Positions 1,778 to 14,078 of a stretch of 15,507 nucleotides of DNA are shown one piece after another (within the stretch, counting starts at the first letter, position 1; every line of letters starts with the position of its first letter). The notes under the pieces were generated by a model that saw only the letters and a program-made list of their open reading frames with translations, was not told the origin of the DNA and ran no database searches. The stretch spans positions 1 through 15,507 of the IMG/VR virus record IMGVR_UViG_2778261457_000008, one strand, 5' to 3'. This stretch comes from a virus. Lineage: Duplodnaviria > Heunggongvirae > Uroviricota > Caudoviricetes. The translations under genes and the position numbers were made by a program.

Positions 1778-1978
1778 TTACCCATTGGCGCGGCTTAAGA
1801 GCTTATTTTTGAATTCACAATGGTCACGATATAACCATCTTGCTCGCCCGTGGATAACTTTGGCTTTAGGCAGGTCGCCGGACTTAATCCGGTCATAGAT
1901 GAAGGTTTTACCGAAGCCAGTATCGGCCATGATGAATTTCAAATCAACCAGTGAATCAGGCTGTAGTTCGTGTTGCAT
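1778..1978 (-). CDS. torI: Excisionase / recombination directionality factor, AlpA-Xis winged-helix family (TorI-like)
   Basis: 66-aa product MQHELQPDSLVDLKFIMADTGFGKTFIYDRIKSGDLPKAKVIHGRARW…; GGAG 9 nt upstream of this ATG; the track's upstream ATG at 1993 has no SD; position next to att without int matches KplE1-type layout. Confidence 0.7.
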   Translation of the reverse strand: MQHELQPDSLVDLKFIMADTGFGKTFIYDRIKSGDLPKAKVIHGRARWLYRDHCEFKNKLLSRANG

Positions 1979-2643: not shown

Positions 2644-3362
2644 TTCGCCTCCTGCGGCGGTTCTGGTAGCGGCATCCAGTGGGTTACTCCATGCCATATA
2701 CCAGTTAAGGTTTCAAACCTTGGCTCTCTGCCTTTCTGTGTCTTGGCATATTCATTCCTTGTATATACGCATTGTCTAACTGCATATCCATTCCATCCAA
2801 TAACTGTTTGTCTAATTTCAGGCATTCGCTCACTACAGCTTATCCAACCATCCGGAGTTACCGGAGAGTTGCCATCCAGCGCGTTCAACTTGTAAGCCTG
2901 GCTTACAGGTTCGGCACTATGAAGCATGGCAGCGCGGCAGGCGTTCCAGCCTTGAACCTTAGCTATTGCCACAACTGCATCGGTAAAGAACATTCTCGCG
3001 GTATCTGGCTCCGGCATTTCATCCGGCACAGCTTGCTGCGGTAACTGTGGTACAGTCAGTGACTCCAATTCAGCGATACGCTTCTCTGCGGCTTCCAGTT
3101 CATCAAGCAGCGCCAAGACGGTAGCCGGATTGGCTGCAGCGATGAATTCAGCATTGGCCTGCTGTTCCATTTGGAAATCTTCATCGAAACCGCTTTCAGG
3201 ATGCGCTCCTTCAATTATGCAAATAGGAAGATATCCAACAACTTCACGATGAATTAGCGCATCACCAGCATCAAGTTTCTCCTCTCCATATTCGAGCGAC
3301 CACACACCACACGTTGCTTTCTCTGCCTTTTCACGCAGTGCCTGATAATCAATCTTGCTCAC
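2640..3362 (-). CDS. Ead/Ea22-like early accessory protein with DUF551-like C-terminus
   Basis: 240 aa; motifs NPATVLALLDELEAAEKR and C-terminal HGVTHWMPLPEPP recalled from Ead/Ea22 and DUF551 families; GTG start with AGGAGG 6 nt upstream, GTGA overlap with upstream gene. Confidence 0.6.
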   Translation of the reverse strand: MSKIDYQALREKAEKATCGVWSLEYGEEKLDAGDALIHREVVGYLPICIIEGAHPESGFDEDFQMEQQANAEFIAAANPATVLALLDELEAAEKRIAELESLTVPQLPQQAVPDEMPEPDTARMFFTDAVVAIAKVQGWNACRAAMLHSAEPVSQAYKLNALDGNSPVTPDGWISCSERMPEIRQTVIGWNGYAVRQCVYTRNEYAKTQKGREPRFETLTGIWHGVTHWMPLPEPPQEAK

Positions 3363-3898
3363 TGGTTGCCTCCTTTGCGAAGCTGGGCGGCGAATTTCTG
3401 TGCCTCTTTCTGGATGAATAGCTTTTCGCTGAAGTTATGGTACTGACCGAACATCTCCACGCCCTGCGCCCGAACTTCAGCCATGAAGGCGTCGGTGGCT
3501 GGGTGCTCTGTCTGGCTATGCATTGCCCATTCAGATAAGTACTCGAAGCAACGGCGAAACTCCTGCCAATCACTGCACATGTTTAGATTTCCGCCTTCAC
3601 ACTCGAACTGGTAATTCTCTAAACGGTCTGCAAACGCTATGCCATTCTCGATGGCACCAAGTGGAATATCAGACTTCATCCCCGCATTCTCTGCCGTAAG
3701 CGCCGCGCACTTGGCCTCAAGGTTATCAATCGTGATTCCAGCAGAACGACACTCCCGCAACGCCGTTTCCAGTTTTGATTCAAGTTCACCGAACTTACGG
3801 ACAAGATATTCAGCGTTTGTTTCGTTAACCTTTAAATCTCGTGGGATGCATTTACCTTTCAGAAAACCATCCATCTCAATTAGTGACATTTGTTTCAT
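3359..3898 (-). CDS. Hypothetical early-left protein (about 179 aa)
   Basis: Long open frame; I place the start at ATG 3898 (GGAG upstream) rather than the track's GTG at 3916, which has no SD; no recognisable domain. Confidence 0.5.
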
Positions 3899-4055
3899 TT
3901 CTTCCCACTCCGCCACATCGCATTCAGATATTTGTTGTCATTAACAGAACCGAAACTCTTTCTCTTAAGCAATTCCTCTCTCGATGGCATTGGCTTTACG
4001 CGTTGGCGAATAATCATTTCTGCCGGAAGAATGCCGGGGTTGTATGCAAGTTCTC

Positions 4056-4356: not shown

Positions 4357-4650
4357 TCAGTCATTACTGATAGCGCCATAACGTGAGCGGTAATTACGCA
4401 GGCGCGGGTCAATTTCAGGGAAGTGGGTATATGTGGCTTTGCGGAATGGTCGGATTGATGTCTGGTAAATTCGCTCGCGTTCTTCTTTCTCTGCAAGCCA
4501 TATACAGTGGCGAAATTCCTTTTCCTCTTTCGTTTCCTGCGGTAGCGACATTATCAGGTCGTAGTTTTTTCTGAATTTATCCAGCACCTCCGATACGGAA
4601 TTGCCGGAACAGCGGCGCGCGTCGTCCGCACCATACAGAGGCGCTGGCAT
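4357..4650 (-). CDS. Hypothetical protein (97 aa)
   Basis: ATG at 4650 with AGGAG 6 nt upstream; tight packing with neighbours. Confidence 0.55.
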   Translation of the reverse strand: MPAPLYGADDARRCSGNSVSEVLDKFRKNYDLIMSLPQETKEEKEFRHCIWLAEKEERERIYQTSIRPFRKATYTHFPEIDPRLRNYRSRYGAISND

Positions 4651-4663
4651 GATTTTCTCCTGA

Positions 4664-5143
4664 TTAAATTGCGTGAATAGCGTGACGAGGGAAGGGGAGA
4701 GTTACTGGTTCCTCGTCTGGGTAGATAGGTTTGTTATGTTTGTGCCACTCGACATGACATGACTTGCAGAGCCACATCACATCGGTTGGTTTGCTGTAGT
4801 CGCAGTGGTGCGCCTGTGGTTTACATTCTGATCCGCAGCACTCACATTGTGGTGGTCGGATTAGCTTACCGTCGCGCAAAAAATTACCCACAATGATGTG
4901 GGCTTTTCTTTTCCATGGGTTGCTCTGAATGAACCGCTTTTTGGCTGCGTTACACCGTTCTCTTCCGCGTTCCGATGATTGATATTCTCTCCTTGCTGAT
5001 ACTCGATGTGGCAATCCAGCGCGTTCTTTGTCGTATTCAGCCAGGCAAGCCCGGCAAGCGGCAGTTAATCCATCTCTGGATGCTCTTCTGATTTGAAAGT
5101 CCCTTTCTTCCTTCTGTTGATGGCATCTTGAGCAGATTTTCAT
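4664..5143 (-). CDS. HNH endonuclease with N-terminal Cys-rich region
   Basis: 159 aa; C-terminal motif …CECCGSECKPQAHHCDYSKPTDVMWLCKSCHVEWH typical of the HNH fold; AGGAG 6 nt upstream of the ATG. Confidence 0.65.
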   Translation of the reverse strand: MKICSRCHQQKEERDFQIRRASRDGLTAACRACLAEYDKERAGLPHRVSARREYQSSERGRERCNAAKKRFIQSNPWKRKAHIIVGNFLRDGKLIRPPQCECCGSECKPQAHHCDYSKPTDVMWLCKSCHVEWHKHNKPIYPDEEPVTLPFPRHAIHAI

Positions 5144-5152
5144 ATTCAGCTC

Positions 5153-5626
5153 CTAGAACGGAATATCCGAATCGTCGAAGTTCATAGGTGGTTCGCTGTG
5201 ATTTCCCTGCTGCTGAGGTTGCTGTCTTTGTTGCTGACCATTATTTCGCTGAGGTGAAGACTGTTCATTGCCTCCTTGCTTGCCACCAAGCATTTGCATG
5301 GTTCCACCAACGCCCACGATGACTTCGGTAGTGAACCTATCCTGTCCGCTTTGATCCTGCCATTTTCTTGTCCGTAATTTGCCTTCAAGATAAACCTCAG
5401 AGCCTTTTCGCAGATATTCGCTGGCAATTTCTGCCAGTTTCCCGCTCATTACCACACGGTGCCACTCCGTCTGCTCCTTTTGCTCTCCAGTTTGCTTATC
5501 ACGCCATTGTTCTGACGTAGCAACTGTAAGGTTTGCAAATGCCGTTCCTGATGGTGAATATCTGATTTCTGGATCATGCCCAAGGCGACCAATAATGATC
5601 ACCTTATTTACGCCTCTACTTCCCAT
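5153..5626 (-). CDS. ssb: Single-stranded DNA-binding protein
   Basis: 157 aa; OB-fold N-terminus, Gly/Gln-rich linker and acidic tail ending DDSDIPF. Confidence 0.85.
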
Positions 5627-6334
5627 TTATGCCGCCTGTTTTAGTTCGTTAACTCTGATGTTCATTACCTGAACGCATTTAGCCTGCGCCTCCTCGTTGC
5701 CAGCCATTAATTGCCAGTCACGCTGATAACGCTCGATGAGTTTTTTCTTGTCAGTTTCTGTTGACGCATAATCGCTGAAGTCTTTCAGGATTTGTTCGCA
5801 GTCAACCGATGGAGATTTCTGGTTGGTATTTTCTGGTGATGGTTTGTTATCTGATGCTGGGATTGCCCATCCCGGCAGCGATGGAGGGAGCCAGTAAAAT
5901 CCTGTTCCATCCTTCAGTTTTGCCCTGTGCCACCCCTGCTTTTTATCGAGAGATGTTTGTGCGAAACCTTCCTCAAGGTTATACAGATACCGACCGATTC
6001 CCCACTGAACGGCAGCACGCTTCATTGCACCGGAACGACCACCTTTTACGGCTTCTACCTGCGTGTTTTCAGCGGCATCCCATTTGGTTACCCATTCGGA
6101 ATCAATCTTGATTGATATGCCGCATTCAACTCCGCCGTTGTTGGGAATATCGCGGTATTCATTGCGCCATCCTGCTTTGCCGCAAACATCGTCCAGGCGT
6201 TTCATGATTGCCCGGTTCGTGACATAAGCCAGCACCATAGCCCACACCTTGCCATCGCGTGTTTTACCGCTTTGCTGTATTCGCCATTCGATATCTTCAG
6301 GGCTGAATGGCTCATCGAATTTATTCAAATCCAT
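5627..6334 (-). CDS. Rad52/Sak-like single-strand annealing protein (recombinase)
   Basis: 235 aa; pattern …GGRSGAMKRAAVQWGIGRYLY… resembles Rad52-fold annealing proteins; sits in the bet/erf slot beside ssb; GAGGTG 4 nt upstream of ATG. Confidence 0.55.
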   Translation of the reverse strand: MDLNKFDEPFSPEDIEWRIQQSGKTRDGKVWAMVLAYVTNRAIMKRLDDVCGKAGWRNEYRDIPNNGGVECGISIKIDSEWVTKWDAAENTQVEAVKGGRSGAMKRAAVQWGIGRYLYNLEEGFAQTSLDKKQGWHRAKLKDGTGFYWLPPSLPGWAIPASDNKPSPENTNQKSPSVDCEQILKDFSDYASTETDKKKLIERYQRDWQLMAGNEEAQAKCVQVMNIRVNELKQAA

Positions 6335-6342
6335 AATTCACC

Positions 6343-6531
6343 TCAGAATGGTAATTCGGATGGGGAGGAAAGAAATTCGCGCTCATTCATGCGCTCTCTT
6401 TGTGCTTGCCATAAACAAAGTTGTTTCTTTGATTTATCTCCCGCTTTACGCCAGTAACGAGCCTCAGCAATGTGATATTCTCTTTTTAATCGACTTAACT
6501 CTGGAGTTTTCGCCAGCTCTACCGGAATCAT
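6343..6531 (-). CDS. Hypothetical small basic protein (62 aa)
   Basis: ATG at 6531 with GGAGG 5 nt upstream; ATGA overlap with the kil stop. Confidence 0.45.
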   Translation of the reverse strand: MIPVELAKTPELSRLKREYHIAEARYWRKAGDKSKKQLCLWQAQRERMNEREFLSSPSELPF

Positions 6532-6641
6532 TTAGACCTCCATTTTCTGTAGGCTTCGACGGCCTCACGAAACATCTTTTCATCGCCAATAAAAGTGGCG
6601 ATAGTGAATTTAGTCTGAATAGCCATAAGTGTTTTATCCAT
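6528..6641 (-). CDS. kil: Kil-like host-killing / cell-division inhibitor (37 aa)
   Basis: MDKTLMAIQTKFTIATFIGDEKMFREAVEAYRKWRSK matches my recollection of lambda Kil; its ATG overlaps the cIII stop (ATGGATAA). Confidence 0.5.
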   Translation of the reverse strand: MDKTLMAIQTKFTIATFIGDEKMFREAVEAYRKWRSK

Positions 6642-6780
6642 TTTTTGGAACTCCTGGCTGATTAAGTACGTCGATGAGTCGTTTCCATCCGTCACGTAAT
6701 TTACGGGTGATTCGTTCAAGTAAAGATTCATTTAGTTGGAAGGCACCCATGCGAGCGCCTCCCGCGATTGCGTAAATCAT
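6634..6780 (-). CDS. cIII: CIII (FtsH/HflB inhibitor stabilising CII)
   Basis: 48-aa product MIYAIAGGARMGAFQLNESLLERITRKLRDGWKRLIDVLNQPGVPKNG; central helix matches recalled lambda CIII; AAGGAA 6 nt upstream; not in the ORF track, which instead fuses frames into 6528..6731. Confidence 0.6.
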   Translation of the reverse strand: MIYAIAGGARMGAFQLNESLLERITRKLRDGWKRLIDVLNQPGVPKNG

Positions 6781-6804: not shown

Positions 6805-7773
6805 TTAGTAGGTTATTTTTGTTGCGAATACTTCGCCTTTTACGATGGCTGTTATGATATTTTTAGCAACATCTTCTGATGCGCCAACCTTGATAAGGTC
6901 AGCAAGTATTTTGTTATTTACTTCTTTTCGGTGAGCTTTATCCTTTGCTCTACACTCTTCTTCTTCCTTGATTCTTTTTTCTTCTGCTATTCTGGCTTGC
7001 TCTTTTGCTTCAGCCTCGCGCCGGATTCGTTCAGCCTCCTCCTGTGCTTTTCGGCGTTCTGCTTCAATTGCCGCATGCTTTTCTCTTTCAGCTCGTTCTG
7101 CTGCCTCTTTTGCTTCGCGCTGTGCTCGTTGCTCGGCTTCAATGCGTTCACGCTCTGCACGTTCCGCTGCGGCCTTAGCTTCTGCTTCTCGCCTTGCTGC
7201 TGCTTCAATTTCGGCTTTTGCCTTTGCTTCGGCTTCAGCTCTGGCTTTCTCTTCAGCTTCTCTTTTTAAGCGTTCTTCATGCTCTCGCTTTTCCTGCTCC
7301 GCTTTGAGTCTTGCCTCTTCTCTTTGGCGGTCAAATTCGCGATCCATCAAAATCGCTATTTCATGGTCAGACTCAATTTGCTTTGCGAGAGCTTCAGCTG
7401 CTGCCCTAGCTTCTTCTTCGGCTTTAATCCGCGCCTGTTCTTCCTCATAATCAGTAAGAGGCTGGCGTGCCTTGGCTTTCAGCTCATCAAGGCGATCACG
7501 CACTGTCTTGCGGTTGGCATCAATTAGCTTTGGAATTTCCTTCAGTTCAGCAACAAGGTCTTTGCCAAGACCATCGAGATATGTTTTCGTCTGCGCAACT
7601 TTATACGCCAGAGAAGCGATCTCCTTTCTGCCCTTTGCCGTTGTGATATCAGGCACAAAGGACATAACTTCACGTTCAACCTTTTGAAGGATTTCTTCAA
7701 TCTGGCCGGCAGACTGAAATACAGTCATTGCATTTGCTTTTTCAATAACAACTAAATCTGTTACTTCACTCAT
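6805..7773 (-). CDS. Hypothetical phage protein with long Glu/Ala/Arg/Lys-rich coiled-coil (322 aa)
   Basis: ATG at 7773 with GGAGG 4 nt upstream; the track's start at 7827 lies inside the upstream terminator hairpin; about 150 residues of EAKAEAE/RREAE repeats. Confidence 0.6.
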   Translation of the reverse strand: MSEVTDLVVIEKANAMTVFQSAGQIEEILQKVEREVMSFVPDITTAKGRKEIASLAYKVAQTKTYLDGLGKDLVAELKEIPKLIDANRKTVRDRLDELKAKARQPLTDYEEEQARIKAEEEARAAAEALAKQIESDHEIAILMDREFDRQREEARLKAEQEKREHEERLKREAEEKARAEAEAKAKAEIEAAARREAEAKAAAERAERERIEAEQRAQREAKEAAERAEREKHAAIEAERRKAQEEAERIRREAEAKEQARIAEEKRIKEEEECRAKDKAHRKEVNNKILADLIKVGASEDVAKNIITAIVKGEVFATKITY

Positions 7774-7785
7774 ATATCCTCCGTC

Positions 7786-7812
7786 AAAAAAATTGCCCTC
7801 ACACTGGAGGGC
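7786..7812 (-). terminator. tL1-like intrinsic terminator on minus strand (stem GCCCTC/GAGGGC, loop CAGTGT, then AATTTTTTT)
   Basis: Read from sequence; lies just upstream of the coiled-coil gene's SD. Confidence 0.5.
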
Positions 7813-7962
7813 AAAGAAGATTTCCAATAATCAGAACAAGTCGGCTCCTGTTTAGTTACGAGCGACATTGCTCAGTGTATTCACTCGTTGGAATGAATAT
7901 ACAGTGCAGTGTTTATTAGTATGCCTGTCTTTTAACCACATCAGGCTCGGTGGTTCTCGTGT

Positions 7963-8026: not shown

Positions 8027-8608
8027 ATGAACAACTCATGGTGGCAGGAACTAATGCATTTTTTCCTGCAAGGAATGACACTTAAACAGTTGATTCATAT
8101 GCTAATCATCCTAATCATATTGATTATTGTTATGCCTGTAAGCGTAAAAGAATGGATAAACCTGCATAATCCAGAAATCCTTCCTCATTACTGGATGTAT
8201 TACATCCTGTTGTTTTGCGTTAGCTATGTGCTTAACGGCGTTGTTAATTCCGCTTATCACGCTGTGACTGAAAGAATTGAGATATTCGCTGCTCAGAAGC
8301 GCAAATCTAAAGAAGAGAAATACGTGCAAGATTTGTTTGATTCGTTAACTCTTGGAGAAAGAGCGTATTTGGCATTCGCTGTAGCCGCTAATAACCAGCT
8401 AAAGACAGAAAAGGGAAGCCCTGAAGCAATCTCATTGCTCGAAAAAGGGCTTCTTATTCGGGTACCTTCTGCTACTGGATATCCTGAAATCGACCGTTTT
8501 GTTATCCCGGAACGCTATAGAAATGAGTGCTACATTAGGTTTGCTGGGAAGAAAGACAGTCTTATGGATGAACTTATCGCTCAGGATAAGCATGGCAAAA
8601 ACAAGTAA
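8027..8608 (+). CDS. sieB: Superinfection exclusion protein B-like membrane protein
   Basis: 193 aa; N-terminal hydrophobic helices then a soluble domain; opposite strand from its neighbours next to N, as for sieB in lambdoid and Rac prophages; family call is from memory. Confidence 0.55.
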   Translation: MNNSWWQELMHFFLQGMTLKQLIHMLIILIILIIVMPVSVKEWINLHNPEILPHYWMYYILLFCVSYVLNGVVNSAYHAVTERIEIFAAQKRKSKEEKYVQDLFDSLTLGERAYLAFAVAANNQLKTEKGSPEAISLLEKGLLIRVPSATGYPEIDRFVIPERYRNECYIRFAGKKDSLMDELIAQDKHGKNK

Positions 8609-8624
8609 TTAGCAAATTAATTTA

Positions 8625-8897
8625 TCATCTCGCCGTCAGTTGTTTTGATTTCCGGTAGCCTGCCGCGTAAATGGCTACGTTTGGCAGGCAAATACTTCCA
8701 CTGCATTCATCTGCCTTCTTGCAGCGAAGGCTTCCGAGTGATGCTGCTTTGTCTGCTCTGACGCAACCAGAGAGCTTTAGCGCAATTTTTCGCGCCAGTC
8801 GCTGTTCTTGCATTGCCTGCTCACGTTGAGCCTGTCTGCGTGCTCTGCGGCGATTTCTGGCGTTATCGTCAGCCAGATATGTAATGACTACTGCCAT
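8625..8897 (-). CDS. N: Antitermination protein N (P22 gp24-like)
   Basis: 90 aa; N-terminal arginine-rich motif NARNRRRARRQAQRE; C-terminus …YAAGYRKSKQLTAR recalled from P22 gene 24; GGAGG 5 nt upstream; nutL and pL lie upstream. Confidence 0.7.
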   Translation of the reverse strand: MAVVITYLADDNARNRRRARRQAQREQAMQEQRLARKIALKLSGCVRADKAASLGSLRCKKADECSGSICLPNVAIYAAGYRKSKQLTAR

Positions 8898-9265: not shown

Positions 9266-9634
9266 TTAGTCAGCGAAGGTTAAGACGAGAATTACCTTAA
9301 TGATGTCTGCTACAACAGACACGGCCATAGATAAACCAAAGACGATCCAAGCCACAGTGATGTCTTCACTACCATCGTATAGAGTTCCGTAATCACTGGT
9401 GTAAGGCGTAAATGTCGCGCCTTGATACAATAGGTATAAGCTTGATCCATAGAGGATAAATGCAGATATCCCTTGTATTGCTATGATCACAAGAATCATG
9501 AAACGAGCTGATCTATGCGCCCAAGCCTGGCTTATTTTTTCTGATAGAGATTTCGCAATAAAAGCATGCGCTAAGCCGTAAATTGTCGAGATTGCCAACA
9601 TCCCAAAAAAGCTTGCTATAGCGGTTCCAACCAT
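9266..9634 (-). CDS. Small integral membrane protein (about 122 aa, about 4 TM) directly downstream of cI, in the rex slot
   Basis: ATG at 9634 with AAGGGG 5 nt upstream, 17 nt after the cI stop; the track's start at 9655 is a TTG overlapping the cI stop; very hydrophobic; no recognisable family. Confidence 0.6.
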   Translation of the reverse strand: MVGTAIASFFGMLAISTIYGLAHAFIAKSLSEKISQAWAHRSARFMILVIIAIQGISAFILYGSSLYLLYQGATFTPYTSDYGTLYDGSEDITVAWIVFGLSMAVSVVADIIKVILVLTFAD

Positions 9635-9651
9635 AAGCGCCCCTTGCGTGA

Positions 9652-10368
9652 TCAAACCAGCCTTAGTTTTGTCTCAATTGCAACGCCTATAATCTTGCAG
9701 TTTCCATTGATTGGCACGAGAGGCCATGCAGGATTAAGTCCCTTGAGGTATTTATTTCCGCCGTCGATTATCAGCTTCTTGAATGTTGCTTCGTTAGAGT
9801 CAGAAAGTTTTGCTATGACCAAGCTGCCGTTGATCGCCTCCCTTCCGGTATCGAAAAGAACGAATGTTCCCTCTGGAATGCTTAACCCAACCGGTGCCGT
9901 CATTGAATCACCTTCCACTTTAAGCCAAAACGCATTACCTTGAATATGCGCGTCAGACTCAAGCCAAACATCTATGTCTTTAATGGTGTATGGTTCGCAT
10001 GCTTCACACCACGAGCCAGCCTGGATACTGCTTAACACCGGATACCTCTTTCCTGCTCTGTATTCCCCTGCATACCTTACGTTGGCATCGCTCTTAAGGC
10101 TTTCTGCCTGTTCTGCAACCTTGGCAGCAATTGACTGGCTAAAATCAGCAATTGAGACTTGCAACAATCGTGCAAAACCAGATGCAACCTCAACGTTTAG
10201 CGCGTTTCTGCCATTAAGATAATGCCCTACCGCTCCTTGGGTGATACCAAGTTCATCAGCGATTGAGTATTGGGTTATTCCCAATTCTTTCTTTTTTGAC
10301 TCATACAAAGCCTTAAGACGCTTAGCGTCTTCGAGCTGTTCTGTCGTCAGTGATTTTTTATTTTCCAT
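9652..10368 (-). CDS. cI: CI-type prophage repressor (HTH + S24 LexA-like autocleavage domain)
   Basis: 238 aa; N-terminus LTTEQLEDAKRLKALYESKKKELGITQ and C-terminal FWLKVEGDSMTAP…FKKL closely parallel lambda CI; divergent from cro across operators. Confidence 0.9.
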   Translation of the reverse strand: MENKKSLTTEQLEDAKRLKALYESKKKELGITQYSIADELGITQGAVGHYLNGRNALNVEVASGFARLLQVSIADFSQSIAAKVAEQAESLKSDANVRYAGEYRAGKRYPVLSSIQAGSWCEACEPYTIKDIDVWLESDAHIQGNAFWLKVEGDSMTAPVGLSIPEGTFVLFDTGREAINGSLVIAKLSDSNEATFKKLIIDGGNKYLKGLNPAWPLVPINGNCKIIGVAIETKLRLV

Positions 10369-11090: not shown

Positions 11091-11237
11091 ATGACAAAAC
11101 AACTCAGTCCTTACCAGGACAAAATTCACAAACACATACTACGTGATCGCTTCCTGTCCAGCTTCAAGCAGCCTGGTCGATTCCGGGCTGAGTTGGAAAA
11201 AGTGAAGCTGATGCAGAAGGAGAAAGGTCATGAGTAA
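11091..11237 (+). CDS. Candidate small basic protein (48 aa) between cII and O
   Basis: ATG with AGGAG 5 nt upstream; no internal stops; overlaps the O start by 8 nt; not in the ORF track (<60 aa); [48 protein letters not shown]. Confidence 0.35.
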
Positions 11238-12090
11238 TCTTGCAACCGTAACACATTTAAGGCCTTCACAACGGCCTGTGGAGCGTCGTGTGGCAGAAGT
11301 TGAAGATGGTTATACCCGTCTTGCAAATGCCCTGTATGAAGAGCTTATCGGCGCTGATTTAACGAAAAATCAGAGCAAGGTTGCCCACGCCATATGCCGT
11401 AAAACATACGGCTACGGTAAAAAGATGGATCGCATCTCTGATAGTCAGTTAGCTCAAATTACCAGGCTGCCAAGACAGAAGGTAAACAAGGCCAAGAATG
11501 AGCTTATCGCGATGAAGGTTATCCTTCGCGAAGGCCAGCAAATCGGGCCTAACAAGAACATCGAGGAATGGCAAATCGAAGGGTGTCACTACTCTGGTGA
11601 TAATGTCACTGCATTGGTGACAAAAAGTGTCACCAAAACGGTGACAGCGCTGTCACCAAAACAGGGACACACAAAAGAAACTATTACAAAAGAAAAAAGA
11701 AATAATAAAAACACTATGTCCGAAAGTGTTCGGACGGAGTGTGAAAAATCACATGACCGTCACGAAGAAACCGACAAGGCATTCGAGGAAATATTCTGGT
11801 GTGCAGGCATGCGGAAAGCCGGGAAGAAAAACGCAGCTTCGGCATTCAGAACACAGTTCAGGGAATGGCGTAAAACTACCAGGGGTACGGCAAGCGAGTT
11901 TGCCACGATGCTGGCAGAAGACATCGCATGCAGGAATGGTAAGCAGTTCGGATTCGACAGGTTGTTACCATCGAGCTACCTGAACGGTCAACGCTGGAAC
12001 GACGAGAAGCCAGAAACTATTCAACCACAATCCAAACCATCATCCGCAATCACCGTATCGAAAACTGGCTACGTGTTTTTCGACAGGTGA
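11230..12090 (+). CDS. O: Replication initiator, lambda O-like N-terminal DNA-binding domain with divergent C-terminal domain
   Basis: 286 aa; N-terminal region (…[14 protein letters not shown]…[40 protein letters not shown]…) parallels lambda O; AAGGAG 7 nt upstream; origin iterons lie inside the gene. Confidence 0.8.
11584..11715. repeat. Replication origin: iterons followed by an AT-rich tract, inside the O gene
   Basis: Palindromic units GGTGACA-N5-TGTCACC (11616-11634) and GGTGACA-N4-TGTCACC (11640-11657), a partial unit at 11596-11610, each followed by AAAAC; AT-rich run 11658-11715. Confidence 0.6.
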
Positions 12091-12093
12091 ACC

Positions 12094-12201
12094 ATGAAAT
12101 CAAAAATCAAATCGCTACTGGTCGCTGGTTATAACCACGGCTGGTTAAGTATTTCGTTTGTAGATTTCTGGTTTAAAAATCTCAATCTGAGGGAATCATG
12201 A
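12094..12201 (+). CDS. Possible 35-aa hydrophobic micro-ORF coupled to the helicase gene
   Basis: ATG 4 nt after the O stop with AGGTG 4 nt upstream; its TGA overlaps the helicase ATG (ATGA); could be chance. Confidence 0.25.
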   Translation: MKSKIKSLLVAGYNHGWLSISFVDFWFKNLNLRES

Positions 12202-14078
12202 GGCCAAGTGAACTTAGCGACCTGCTTTGGGCGCAGGTTGACAGGGTGGCTCCGCACCTGTTGCCAAACGGCAAGAAAGAGGGGCATGAGTGGGTTGCCG
12301 GTAACGTCAACGGTGACAAGGGAAACAGCCTTAAGGTCAACCTTAGCGGCAAGAAAAAATGGGCTGATTTCGCTGAGGGAGACGGCGGTGACATGCTTGA
12401 TTTGTGGATGGCATGTCGTGGAATTAACCTGCATCAGGCTATGCAGGAAGCGAAAGCCTTTCTCGGAATCAAGGATGACGATCACCATTTCGATGCCAAA
12501 CGTGAGAAGAAATTCTCCAGACCTGACCGCAAGAAAATCGCCCGCTACGTTACCAGAACAGAATCCCATCTTGAGTACCTGCAATCGCGTGGCATATCGC
12601 CAGAAGTCGTAAAGCGCTACGAGGTTGTCAGCGGCAAGGTGTGGAATGGAGAACGAGAACTTGATGCACTGGTGCTTCCGTACAAACGCGATGGTGAGTT
12701 GTTGCAGGTCAAGCGAATCAGCACTGAGCGCCCGGACGGGAAGAAAGTCATTATGGCAGAAGGTGATTGTGAACCTTGTCTGTTCGGATGGCAGGCTCTG
12801 GACGCTGGCGTGAGGGCGGTTGTACTTTGCGAAGGCGAAATTGATTGTATGAGCTATGCGCAATACGGCATCTCGGCGTTATCCGTGCCGTTTGGTGGCG
12901 GGAAAGGCGCTAAGCAACAGTGGATTGAGTTTGAGTATCACAATCTCGACAGGTTTGAGGAAATATTCATCTCGATGGACGTTGATGATGTTGGTCGTGA
13001 AGCCGCAATGGAAATCGCAAGCCGACTCGGTGAACATCGTTGCCGTCTTGTTACTCTGCCGTACAAAGACATCAACGAATGCCTGATGAACGGTGTTACC
13101 GAGGATGAAATCTGGCAGTACATCGGCACGGCATCCTACTTCGATCCTGAAGAACTCTACAGTGCGCGAGAGTTTTACCAGGACACTATCAACGCTTTCT
13201 ACGGCAAGCAGCAATATCTGTTTAATCCACCGTGGGAATCTCTGGCAGATAAATTCCAGTTCCGTGAGGCAGAGTTGACGCTGGTCAATGGTGTGAACGG
13301 TCACGGAAAAACGGAGGTTGTCGGGCATATGGCACTTGAGGCAATGCGTCAGGGTGTGAAGACGTGCATCGCGTCACTTGAGCTGAAGCCAGGCATTCTC
13401 CTTAAGCGACTTACCCGTCAGGCGACGTGCTGCAAGATGCCGCCAGTGCTGGAAATTGACTCTGCATTTAAATTTTATGACGAAAGACTTTGGGTGTTTG
13501 GCCTGACCGGAACGGCGAAAGCCGACAGGCTGATCGAAATATTCGACTACGCTCGCCGCCGATACGGGATCCAGTTATTCATCATCGACAGCCTGATGAA
13601 ATGTGGCATAGGCGACGATGACTATAACGGGCAGAAGGCGTTTGTTGACTCGATTTGCGACTTCAAAAACAAAACAAACTCCCACGTCATTCTCGTTACT
13701 CACTCGCGAAAAGGAGACAGCGAAGAAAAACCAACCGGGAAAATGGACGTAAAAGGCTCTGGAGCGATAACAGACCTGACAGACAACCTTTTCATCATCT
13801 GGCGTAACAAGGCTCGCGAGAGAGCGTTACAGAGAGTTCAGAGTGGTGAAAAGATGTCAGAGAAGGACGAACAGTTACTGGCATCTCCGGCATCTGTTTT
13901 GATGCTTGAAAAACAACGTAACGGCGAAGGTTGGGAAGGTGGTGTCCCGTTGTTCCTTGACGAGCAATCGCACCAGTTCCTGCAACTTGAATCAGGATCG
14001 CCATATAGCTACATCGCCAATATGCCGAAATCGGAATATGACGAGGCGTGGCGACAGGAAAACGTGACGGAGTATTAA
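12198..14078 (+). CDS. Bifunctional DNA primase/helicase (Toprim primase domain + DnaB/RecA-like P-loop helicase)
   Basis: 626 aa; Toprim-like VLCEGEIDCMS and ISMDVDDVG; Walker A GVNGHGKTE, Walker B FIIDSLMK, then ILVTHSRKG; occupies the lambda P slot. Confidence 0.8.
   Translation: MRPSELSDLLWAQVDRVAPHLLPNGKKEGHEWVAGNVNGDKGNSLKVNLSGKKKWADFAEGDGGDMLDLWMACRGINLHQAMQEAKAFLGIKDDDHHFDAKREKKFSRPDRKKIARYVTRTESHLEYLQSRGISPEVVKRYEVVSGKVWNGERELDALVLPYKRDGELLQVKRISTERPDGKKVIMAEGDCEPCLFGWQALDAGVRAVVLCEGEIDCMSYAQYGISALSVPFGGGKGAKQQWIEFEYHNLDRFEEIFISMDVDDVGREAAMEIASRLGEHRCRLVTLPYKDINECLMNGVTEDEIWQYIGTASYFDPEELYSAREFYQDTINAFYGKQQYLFNPPWESLADKFQFREAELTLVNGVNGHGKTEVVGHMALEAMRQGVKTCIASLELKPGILLKRLTRQATCCKMPPVLEIDSAFKFYDERLWVFGLTGTAKADRLIEIFDYARRRYGIQLFIIDSLMKCGIGDDDYNGQKAFVDSICDFKNKTNSHVILVTHSRKGDSEEKPTGKMDVKGSGAITDLTDNLFIIWRNKARERALQRVQSGEKMSEKDEQLLASPASVLMLEKQRNGEGWEGGVPLFLDEQSHQFLQLESGSPYSYIANMPKSEYDEAWRQENVTEY

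Follow-up and report, generated by a model that had tools for sequence, protein, structure and literature searches.

Non-catalytic helper proteins are encoded beside phage single-strand annealing proteins (SSAPs), and they include lambda Gam, Arf, Abc1 and Abc2 of P22, and NinB/Orf. In phages of Firmicutes, the slot that directly precedes erf, recT or sak4 with ssb is held by a Mu-Gam homologue, DUF2483, DUF1351 (PF07083) or Sipho_Gp157. These are helical proteins of ~160-300 aa and of unknown function, and an analogous function has been suggested for them (PMC8093625). Another family of phage proteins found next to recombination genes has been catalogued since the genomes of phages D3 (orf53) and Sf6 (gene 33) were annotated. 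We examined one member of this family in IMG/VR virus record IMGVR_UViG_2778261457_000008, the whole 15,507-nucleotide stretch of which is called the window here. The gene lies on the minus strand at 6805-7773 and is predicted to encode a protein of 322 aa that is comprised of a helical N-terminal domain, a long charged helix, and a small C-terminal domain. This three-part layout agrees with an earlier note on this DNA. The protein and its parts, some of them defined with an AlphaFold2 (AF2) model, are as follows.

6805-7773, minus strand: complete coding sequence, 322 aa plus stop; homologue of Sf6 gene 33, D3 orf53 and PHROG 1376
7777-7782, minus strand: Shine-Dalgarno sequence GGAGGA, 3 nt upstream of the ATG at 7773 (direct reading of the sequence)
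7399-7773, minus strand: N-terminal helical domain, residues 1-125 (AF2 helices, conserved signature)
7324-7398, minus strand: hydrophobic island in the long helix, residues 126-150, AEALAKQIESDHEIAILMDREFDRQ (conservation)
6949-7323, minus strand: E/A/R/K-rich helix, residues 151-275, resembling an ER/K single alpha-helix (composition, charge pairing)
6808-6948, minus strand: C-terminal domain, residues 276-322 (47 aa), helix-loop-helix and extended tail, ending I-x-Y

The gene 33 protein is thus already known, and the copy studied here is not novel. What is new is that the TolA label carried by such proteins is wrong, that the charged helix resembles a single alpha-helix, that the length of the protein is conserved, and that the family is large and linked to recombination genes. 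The reading that we favour, and to which we give an even chance, is that this protein of a lambdoid prophage, a member of the Sf6 gene 33/D3 orf53 family, serves the phage recombination module as an accessory adaptor or tether. Such a role is suggested by the position of the family, which across Proteobacteria usually lies just upstream of an SSAP and an exonuclease, often with a single-stranded DNA-binding protein (SSB).

The gene 33 family beside recombination genes

To survey synteny, the genes downstream of the family gene were called in 76 diverse loci and scanned against Pfam. The next gene matched ERF in 14 loci, RecT in 7, AAA_24 in 5, YqaJ in 3 and DUF3799 in 3. The second gene matched YqaJ in 20 loci, ERF in 6, Rad52_Rad22 in 4, and DUF3799, AAA_24 and RecT in 2 each. 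The AAA_24 matches may be SSAPs of the Sak4 type. Using locally built iterative hidden Markov models (HMMs), we found that 52 of the 76 loci encode an SSAP or exonuclease among the four genes that follow, which is probably an undercount because these models picked up few RecT members and were built without a Sak4-type seed.

The same position was seen in four distant phages, where the family gene is just upstream of the recombination genes and directly precedes them in three of the four. The gene order is orf53, Erf and YqaJ exonuclease in D3; gp10, Erf, YqaJ and NinB in phiLM21; the family gene, a 252-aa protein and an exonuclease in Acinetobacter phi5013-M1; and the family gene, ExoVIII and a Bet-like protein in Shewanella 1/41. 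At one of the diverse loci (L114 or a neighbour among L090-L169), the gene directly downstream encodes a Sipho_Gp157 protein (Pfam E 8e-23). Therefore, the family can co-occur with this Gram-positive slot-mate and does not always replace it.

The family reaches well beyond enteric phages. The 322-aa protein matches PHROG 1376 over residues 1-322 (E 2.1e-109), PHROG 17211 over residues 1-115 and PHROG 21365 over residues 111-322, all of which are annotated as of unknown function. Using tblastn, we found that it is ~99% identical to gene 33 of Shigella phage Sf6, which is homologous over its full length and has the same early-left position. Proteins of mEp234, mEp043 and HK544 are also ~99% identical, and HK633, mEp213, IME10 and Stx1a phages encode similarly close proteins. 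The DNA of the gene is present at 95-99% identity in 530 of 5,426 complete E. coli genomes (~10%). Homologues of the N-terminal 110-150 residues are also encoded by phages of Pseudomonas (D3 orf53, PAJU2), Vibrio, Klebsiella, Erwinia, Acinetobacter, Shewanella, Aeromonas and Sinorhizobium. D3 orf53 and relatives like it are 30-60% identical in the N-domain, with the same layout and a position in the early-left or recombination region. Compared with Sf6 gene 33, D3 orf53 and PHROG 1376 the studied copy shows no notable difference and is an ordinary member. When a profile of the N-domain was run with HMMER against all 1.84 billion cluster representatives, it matched 5,640 clusters (50% identity) at E <= 1e-3 and 5,012 at E <= 1e-10; among the matches listed, the domain is at or near the N-terminus and lengths are typically 320-370 aa. 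We also assembled a diverse set of 77 complete members from different GTDB species. These have a median length of ~353 aa, and their segment with at least 80% E/A/R/K/Q is typically 110-200 residues long. The three-part layout is kept throughout the full-length alignments, including these 77.

The window has the gene in the corresponding position upstream of an SSAP and SSB, and the genes that follow it are cIII, kil, an ORF matching phrog_1723, a Rad52-type SSAP, and SSB. The neighbouring features, with the strand where it was recorded, are listed below.

6634-6780: cIII, immediately downstream of the gene 33 homologue
6528-6731: kil, downstream
6343-6531: small open reading frame (ORF) matching phrog_1723, labelled 'recombinase', possibly Arf-like, downstream
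5627-6334, minus strand: SSAP with a Rad52_Rad22 core (Pfam E 5e-26; labelled Erf-like in PHROGs)
5153-5626: SSB, downstream
4664-5143: HNH-like endonuclease, downstream
4357-4650: Abc2, anti-RecBCD protein (PF11043, E 6e-64)
7786-7814, minus strand: hairpin resembling a terminator, TTGCCCTCCAGTGTGAGGGCAA and then T7, just before the ribosome-binding site of the gene (terminator scan; also given as 7793-7814)
8027-8608, strand opposite to the gene 33 homologue: sieB, upstream
8625-8897: N, upstream
9652-10368: cI repressor, upstream

There is also an ORF of 60 aa upstream of the gene. In lambda, ea10 sits between cIII and the sieB/N region. The gene studied here lies between the same landmarks, in keeping with its earlier assignment to the ea10 slot. 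The annotation of Sf6 places tL2A at the position that corresponds to the hairpin in the window. This hairpin directly upstream of the gene suggests transcription from pL under N antitermination. Thus, the gene is probably expressed in the delayed-early phase, as part of the pL operon, by read-through of a tL2-like terminator. The protein contains no membrane segment, so it is probably cytoplasmic.

Other helpers are encoded near the family gene as well. Abc2 is present in the window, the small phrog_1723 ORF may be Arf-like, and NinB follows the module in phiLM21. Unlike these and Gam, Abc1 and Orf, with which it has no similarity in sequence or fold, the gene 33 protein is much larger and has a spacer helix. 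We suspected from the motif layout that the family is homologous to DUF1351, but hmmscan was negative and hhalign gave probabilities of 12.6% and 8.3%, which are not significant. The hhalign alignment was co-linear, and the DUF1351 profile used was a shallow one made from one Enterococcus subfamily. The Pfam model for DUF1351 had no match in the protein at E <= 1, in seven N-domains at E <= 10 or in the 77 diverse members at E <= 0.01; a positive control, the protein from Enterococcus phage LG62, was matched at 2e-18. The one DUF1351 example that we examined lacks both an ER/K helix and a C-terminal domain of this kind.

The main rival to an adaptor is a Gam-like protector that would either inhibit a host nuclease (RecBCD or SbcCD, for example) or cap DNA ends, clearing the way for the phage SSAP and exonuclease. 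Its map position speaks for it; the gene is just upstream of the SSAP in most loci, and gam is next to bet in lambda, an equivalent place. In addition, Mu-Gam homologues are among the proteins that alternate in the Firmicutes slot (PMC8093625). Nonetheless, the 77 members have no Pfam match and thus none to Gam families, and Foldseek searches of the PDB and BFVD returned only family members or generic helical bundles with no match to Gam. The prophage already encodes Abc2 against RecBCD, and the charged helix is nearly neutral with its charge evenly spread, which is not what an acidic DNA mimic would look like. We therefore regard a Gam-like protector as improbable.

A charged helix between two domains

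Residues 126-275 are 80% E, A, R and K (E 29%, A 25%, R 17%, K 9%), which bears out the earlier description of a Glu/Ala/Arg/Lys-rich stretch. In the extreme core, residues 151-275, the content of E/A/R/K/Q is 87-97% in 30-residue windows. This core is 61% charged and only 8 of its 125 residues (6%) are strongly hydrophobic, with no 3.5-residue periodicity in the hydrophobic positions (p = 0.39 against shuffles). There are 69 opposite-charge pairs at i/i+3 and i/i+4 compared to 44.8 +/- 5.1 in shuffled sequences (z ~4.8). The net charge is -4 over the 125 residues, and charge is spread around the helix more evenly than in all 1,000 shuffles with neither a basic nor an acidic stripe. Other family members are alike in this respect, with a salt-bridge z above 2 in 71 of 74 and a heptad p below 0.05 in 5 of 74, about the rate expected by chance. 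If fully helical, the segment would be ~19 nm long (125 residues x 1.5 Angstrom).

Judging from sequence, residues 151-275 probably fit an ER/K single alpha-helix better than a coiled coil, and we infer that this segment would be a single alpha-helix in solution. ER/K single alpha-helices are described as semi-rigid spacers between domains (PMC4183817, PMC5378345), and the KER region of CAF-1 as a single alpha-helix that binds DNA (PMC10335832). The gene 33 helix shares with the eukaryotic ER/K domains of myosin VI/X, INCENP and CAF-1 KER a high content of E, K and R, dense i/i+4 salt bridges, the absence of a hydrophobic seam, and a spacer position between two functional domains. It differs in being richer in alanine and, unlike CAF-1 KER, in having no basic stripe. 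We considered a DNA-binding helix of the KER kind and rejected it on the latter ground. The likeness to the eukaryotic domains is an analogy and implies no common descent.

The earlier note had called the repeats heptad-like and the protein a coiled coil. Since the helix is without heptads, this term is probably wrong. The corresponding alternative is a coiled coil of the classical kind, with two or three strands, that would serve as a structural or scaffold protein and in which alanine-rich faces make the contacts between helices. Alanine accounts for 27% of the helix residues and is weakly biased towards one side (helical moment p ~0.06), the hydrophobic island at residues 131-147 might act as a nucleus for pairing, and a break in the AF2 model at residues 212-226 could be the point of a fold-back. 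The missing 3.5-residue periodicity, which only 5 of 74 relatives show at p < 0.05, the low content of strongly hydrophobic residues, and the significant enrichment of a salt-bridge pattern typical of single alpha-helices all argue against it. Overall, we find a coiled-coil scaffold unlikely and prefer a helix of the single-alpha-helix type.

The island itself, at residues 126-150, interrupts the charged helix with the motif HE(I/M)A(I/L)LM..(E/A)FDR(E/Q). Enteric and Vibrio members conserve it, those of the Klebsiella type carry it in duplicate, and variants of 245 aa and 197 aa have lost it. This hydrophobic motif could be a docking or pairing site.

The AF2 model of the full-length protein was built with 34 sequences and has a mean predicted local distance difference test (pLDDT) score of 84. 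It contains helices at residues 12-20, 22-38, 46-76, 81-215, 227-295 and 300-311, and the N-terminus is folded as helices with pLDDT of 83-92 over residues 11-110. The N-domain is marked by the signature VPD(V/I)(S/T)T.KGR..IAS.A.KVA..KT.LD..GK.LVAE.K...K.ID..R. Across the 77 diverse members R49, S54, K63, G70 and P105 are invariant, and D42, T45, G48, A56, T64, D67 and R88 are nearly so.

The C-domain has the consensus ..HR..IN..A..AL...G..E..A....AIA.G.IP.V.I.Y over ~45 residues, is kept in 71 of the 77 diverse members, and the last residue is Y or F in 71 of the 77. Modelled alone, the last 60 residues have a pLDDT of 91.4. Our first profile of this domain matched RuvA domain III (E 0.022-0.1) and the UBA domain of LATS2 (E 0.1). 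The RuvA match was lost with a broader profile, and Foldseek with the C-domain model gave only E 5-9. A RuvA domain III or UBA-like fold is thus an unconfirmed lead, and the C-domain had no significant match to a fold in the PDB or to a sequence.

Coding sequence, selection and length variants

The ORF begins with an ATG at 7773 and ends with a stop at 6805-6807. A longer reading of 340 aa that starts at a TTG is unlikely to be used because homologues share the start MSEVTDL. The coding strand of the charged tract is 72% purine. On the plus strand, this appears as an AT skew of -0.72 to -0.74 compared to a GC skew of -0.22 to -0.28, so that the dominant bias is a purine and AT skew and the tract is poorly described as GC-skewed. 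The plus strand has only 9.6% A across 6930-7450 and therefore few stop codons, leading to long antisense ORFs (6931-7269, 6968-7450, 7279-7527 and others; sizes include 112 aa and 160 aa), in line with the earlier view that several such ORFs are spurious. Tandem Repeats Finder detected only a weak 6-nt periodicity (score 36) in the tract, which contains imperfect direct repeats of 24-37 nt at 67-88% identity. Thus, it is cryptically repetitive with no tandem array, and calling it simply repetitive overstates the case.

We compared the 80 closest IMG/VR loci, 75 of which have complete ORFs. The protein is exactly 322 aa in 73 of the 75, although they comprise 65 distinct proteins, and the two odd lengths (306 aa and 284 aa) are single-base frameshifts. 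The pooled ratio of nonsynonymous to synonymous substitution rates (dN/dS) rises from 0.066 in the N-domain to 0.14 in residues 126-150, 0.19 in the helix and 0.27 in the C-domain. The gene is under purifying selection in every segment and, given its low dN/dS, the low-complexity helix is constrained coding sequence.

In-frame length variants do exist, and two pairs of repeats in the window are relevant to them.

7081-7170, no strand assigned: 24-nt imperfect repeats at 7147-7170 and 7081-7104, both encoding AAERAERE (DNA alignment with HK633 gp41)
7162-7188 and 7393-7419, no strand assigned: direct-repeat copies with 85% identity, spaced by 231 nt (77 codons) (repeat search)

In the DNA alignment, HK633 gp41 (300 aa) lacks the 66 nt at 7105-7170 of the window, between the 24-nt repeats. 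A form of 245 aa (P0017; several E. coli and Salmonella clusters) has a clean deletion of 77 aa, exactly 231 nt, which is the spacing of the second pair. A form of 257 aa has the 231-nt deletion together with a short duplicated stretch and a C-domain of the Klebsiella type, and forms of 197, 221 and 262 aa were found among the Klebsiella-type relatives examined. As the deletions in HK633 and in the 245-aa form show, recombination between short direct repeats does give rise to variants, in agreement with the slipped recombination suggested earlier. The true in-frame variants are rare and the dominant length is maintained. Consequently, the earlier statement that the tract is prone to length variation stands only in that real variants occur; frequent repeat-length polymorphism is rejected for the close relatives. 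Length is near-uniform and not identical in all relatives, and we found no characterised structural homologue. The natural variants of 322, 300, 257 and 245 aa are a ready series for asking whether helix length matters.

Many database 'homologues' are decay products (P0003, P0007, P0076 and P0119, and loci L018, L039 and L084-L088, for example). They arose by frameshifts in the purine-rich tract or an A-run, or by deletions that fused the N-domain to downstream prophage genes; the fusion partners include Abc2 and the 185-aa ORF at 3359-3916. These chimeric ORFs show prophage erosion at work.

Several other features of the window were noted. It starts in a sucrose-utilisation (csc) locus, where the first ORF (1-1248) is an 'oligosaccharide MFS transporter', probably cscB. 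Alignment with the prophage of strain elppa10 places a torI-like gene at 1778-1978 (minus strand). The window contains no integrase or tRNA gene, and the integrase may sit at the other end of the prophage, as in KplE1. Immediately downstream of cI, in a rexB-like position, is a gene (9266-9655, minus strand) predicted to encode a hydrophobic protein of 129 aa that is apparently a multi-pass membrane protein. It belongs to PHROG 6534, of unknown function, had no match in Pfam or PADLOC, and may be an exclusion or defence gene expressed in the lysogen. The replication module appears to consist of an O-like initiator and a 626-aa ORF (11230-12090 and 12198-14078, both on the plus strand) that by eye is of the primase-helicase type. 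It differs from the lambda O/P pair in the otherwise similar elppa10 prophage, pointing to module swapping.

A possible role in phage recombination

If the gene 33 protein is an adaptor, its N-domain and C-domain would bind two different partners, each of which could be DNA, a recombination protein or a host factor. The helix would be a stiff spacer of ~19 nm that keeps the two end domains a set distance apart, and the protein would act in a recombination or recombination-dependent replication module. This tether mechanism and the identities of the partners are speculative.

Several observations weigh against this role. Synteny is guilt by association only, and in 24 of the 76 diverse loci there is no recognisable SSAP or exonuclease within four genes. 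In the enteric phages cIII and kil intervene between the gene and the SSAP. Proteins that are 98-99% identical adjoin an SSAP with a Rad52 core in the window and one with an ERF core in HK633 and strain elppa10; because the core differs beside near-identical proteins, specific contact with the annealing core is unlikely. The similarity between the window SSAP and HK633 gp36 (L089:4453-5058) is limited to ~70 residues at the C-terminal end, a tail in which identity is 29%, and this tail could be a common partner-binding module. The break in the AF2 model at residues 212-226 is of low confidence, and a model of the monomer cannot separate a single alpha-helix from an alanine-rich coiled coil. 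Natural variants that lack 22-77 residues of the helix persist, so its exact length is not essential.

Database searches likewise yielded little that would identify a function. There was no Pfam match for the protein (E <= 1) or the 77 relatives (E <= 0.01) and no NCBIfam or PADLOC match for the protein, and scans of the protein, its separate domains and the 77 relatives with Pfam and NCBIfam gave nothing meaningful. Profile searches of the PDB returned only coiled-coil noise (Rad50 E 0.019, MDA5 E 0.002). With the full-length AF2 model, Foldseek hits were confined to family members in BFVD and, in the PDB, to generic helical bundles (E >= 0.2). Searches of the literature found no paper that characterises the Sf6 gene 33 family. 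Altogether, no characterised homologue was found by sequence, profile or structure searches, which also counts against the adaptor role and upholds part of the earlier statement that the function is unknown; the synteny with phage recombination genes narrows it.

The weakest alternative, a TolA-like envelope protein or an accessory 'moron' unrelated to recombination (superinfection exclusion, for example), draws on the name 'cell envelope biogenesis protein TolA' used by PGAP and several phage records and on the location of the gene in a variable part of the pL operon, close to sieB, and we consider it very improbable because the NCBIfam TolA model (TIGR02794) has no match here, the protein lacks a membrane segment (Kyte-Doolittle means over 19 residues peak at 1.03, in the C-domain, and the N-terminus is polar), there is no domain III (no Pfam domain in the protein or the 77 relatives, and a C-domain of 47 residues with no PDB match), PADLOC has no match, the gene sits behind a terminator in a lytic early operon and not under a lysogenic promoter, and the synteny with recombination genes holds far outside enterics. 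Membership in TolA is thus largely refuted. The model aligns weakly in one Acinetobacter relative (17.2 bits compared to a cut-off of 59.45) and only to the low-complexity E/A/K-rich helix, which is comparable to domain II of E. coli TolA. This similarity in composition is the likely reason for the database name. Unlike TolA, the gene 33 protein has no membrane anchor and is presumably a cytoplasmic phage protein. The widespread TolA label is wrong and should not be propagated.

Returning to the adaptor, we also offer, more tentatively, a broader and doubtful proposal. The family may be an unrecognised but widespread accessory subunit of the recombination modules of proteobacterial phages, in which an ER/K tether of ~20 nm would join an N-domain that docks on the machinery or on DNA to a C-domain that brings in another partner, which could be a host factor. 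In that case, the family would be the functional counterpart of DUF1351, Gp157 and DUF2483.

The gene 33 family is one of the larger families of phage proteins without a Pfam model or an assigned function. Judged by its composition and charge pattern, its helix would be a clear example from a bacterial virus of a spacer that resembles an ER/K single alpha-helix. Modules of SSAP and exonuclease are the machinery behind phage mosaicism and recombineering. If the proposed role is true, an unrecognised helper could matter for understanding mosaicism and for improving recombineering systems.

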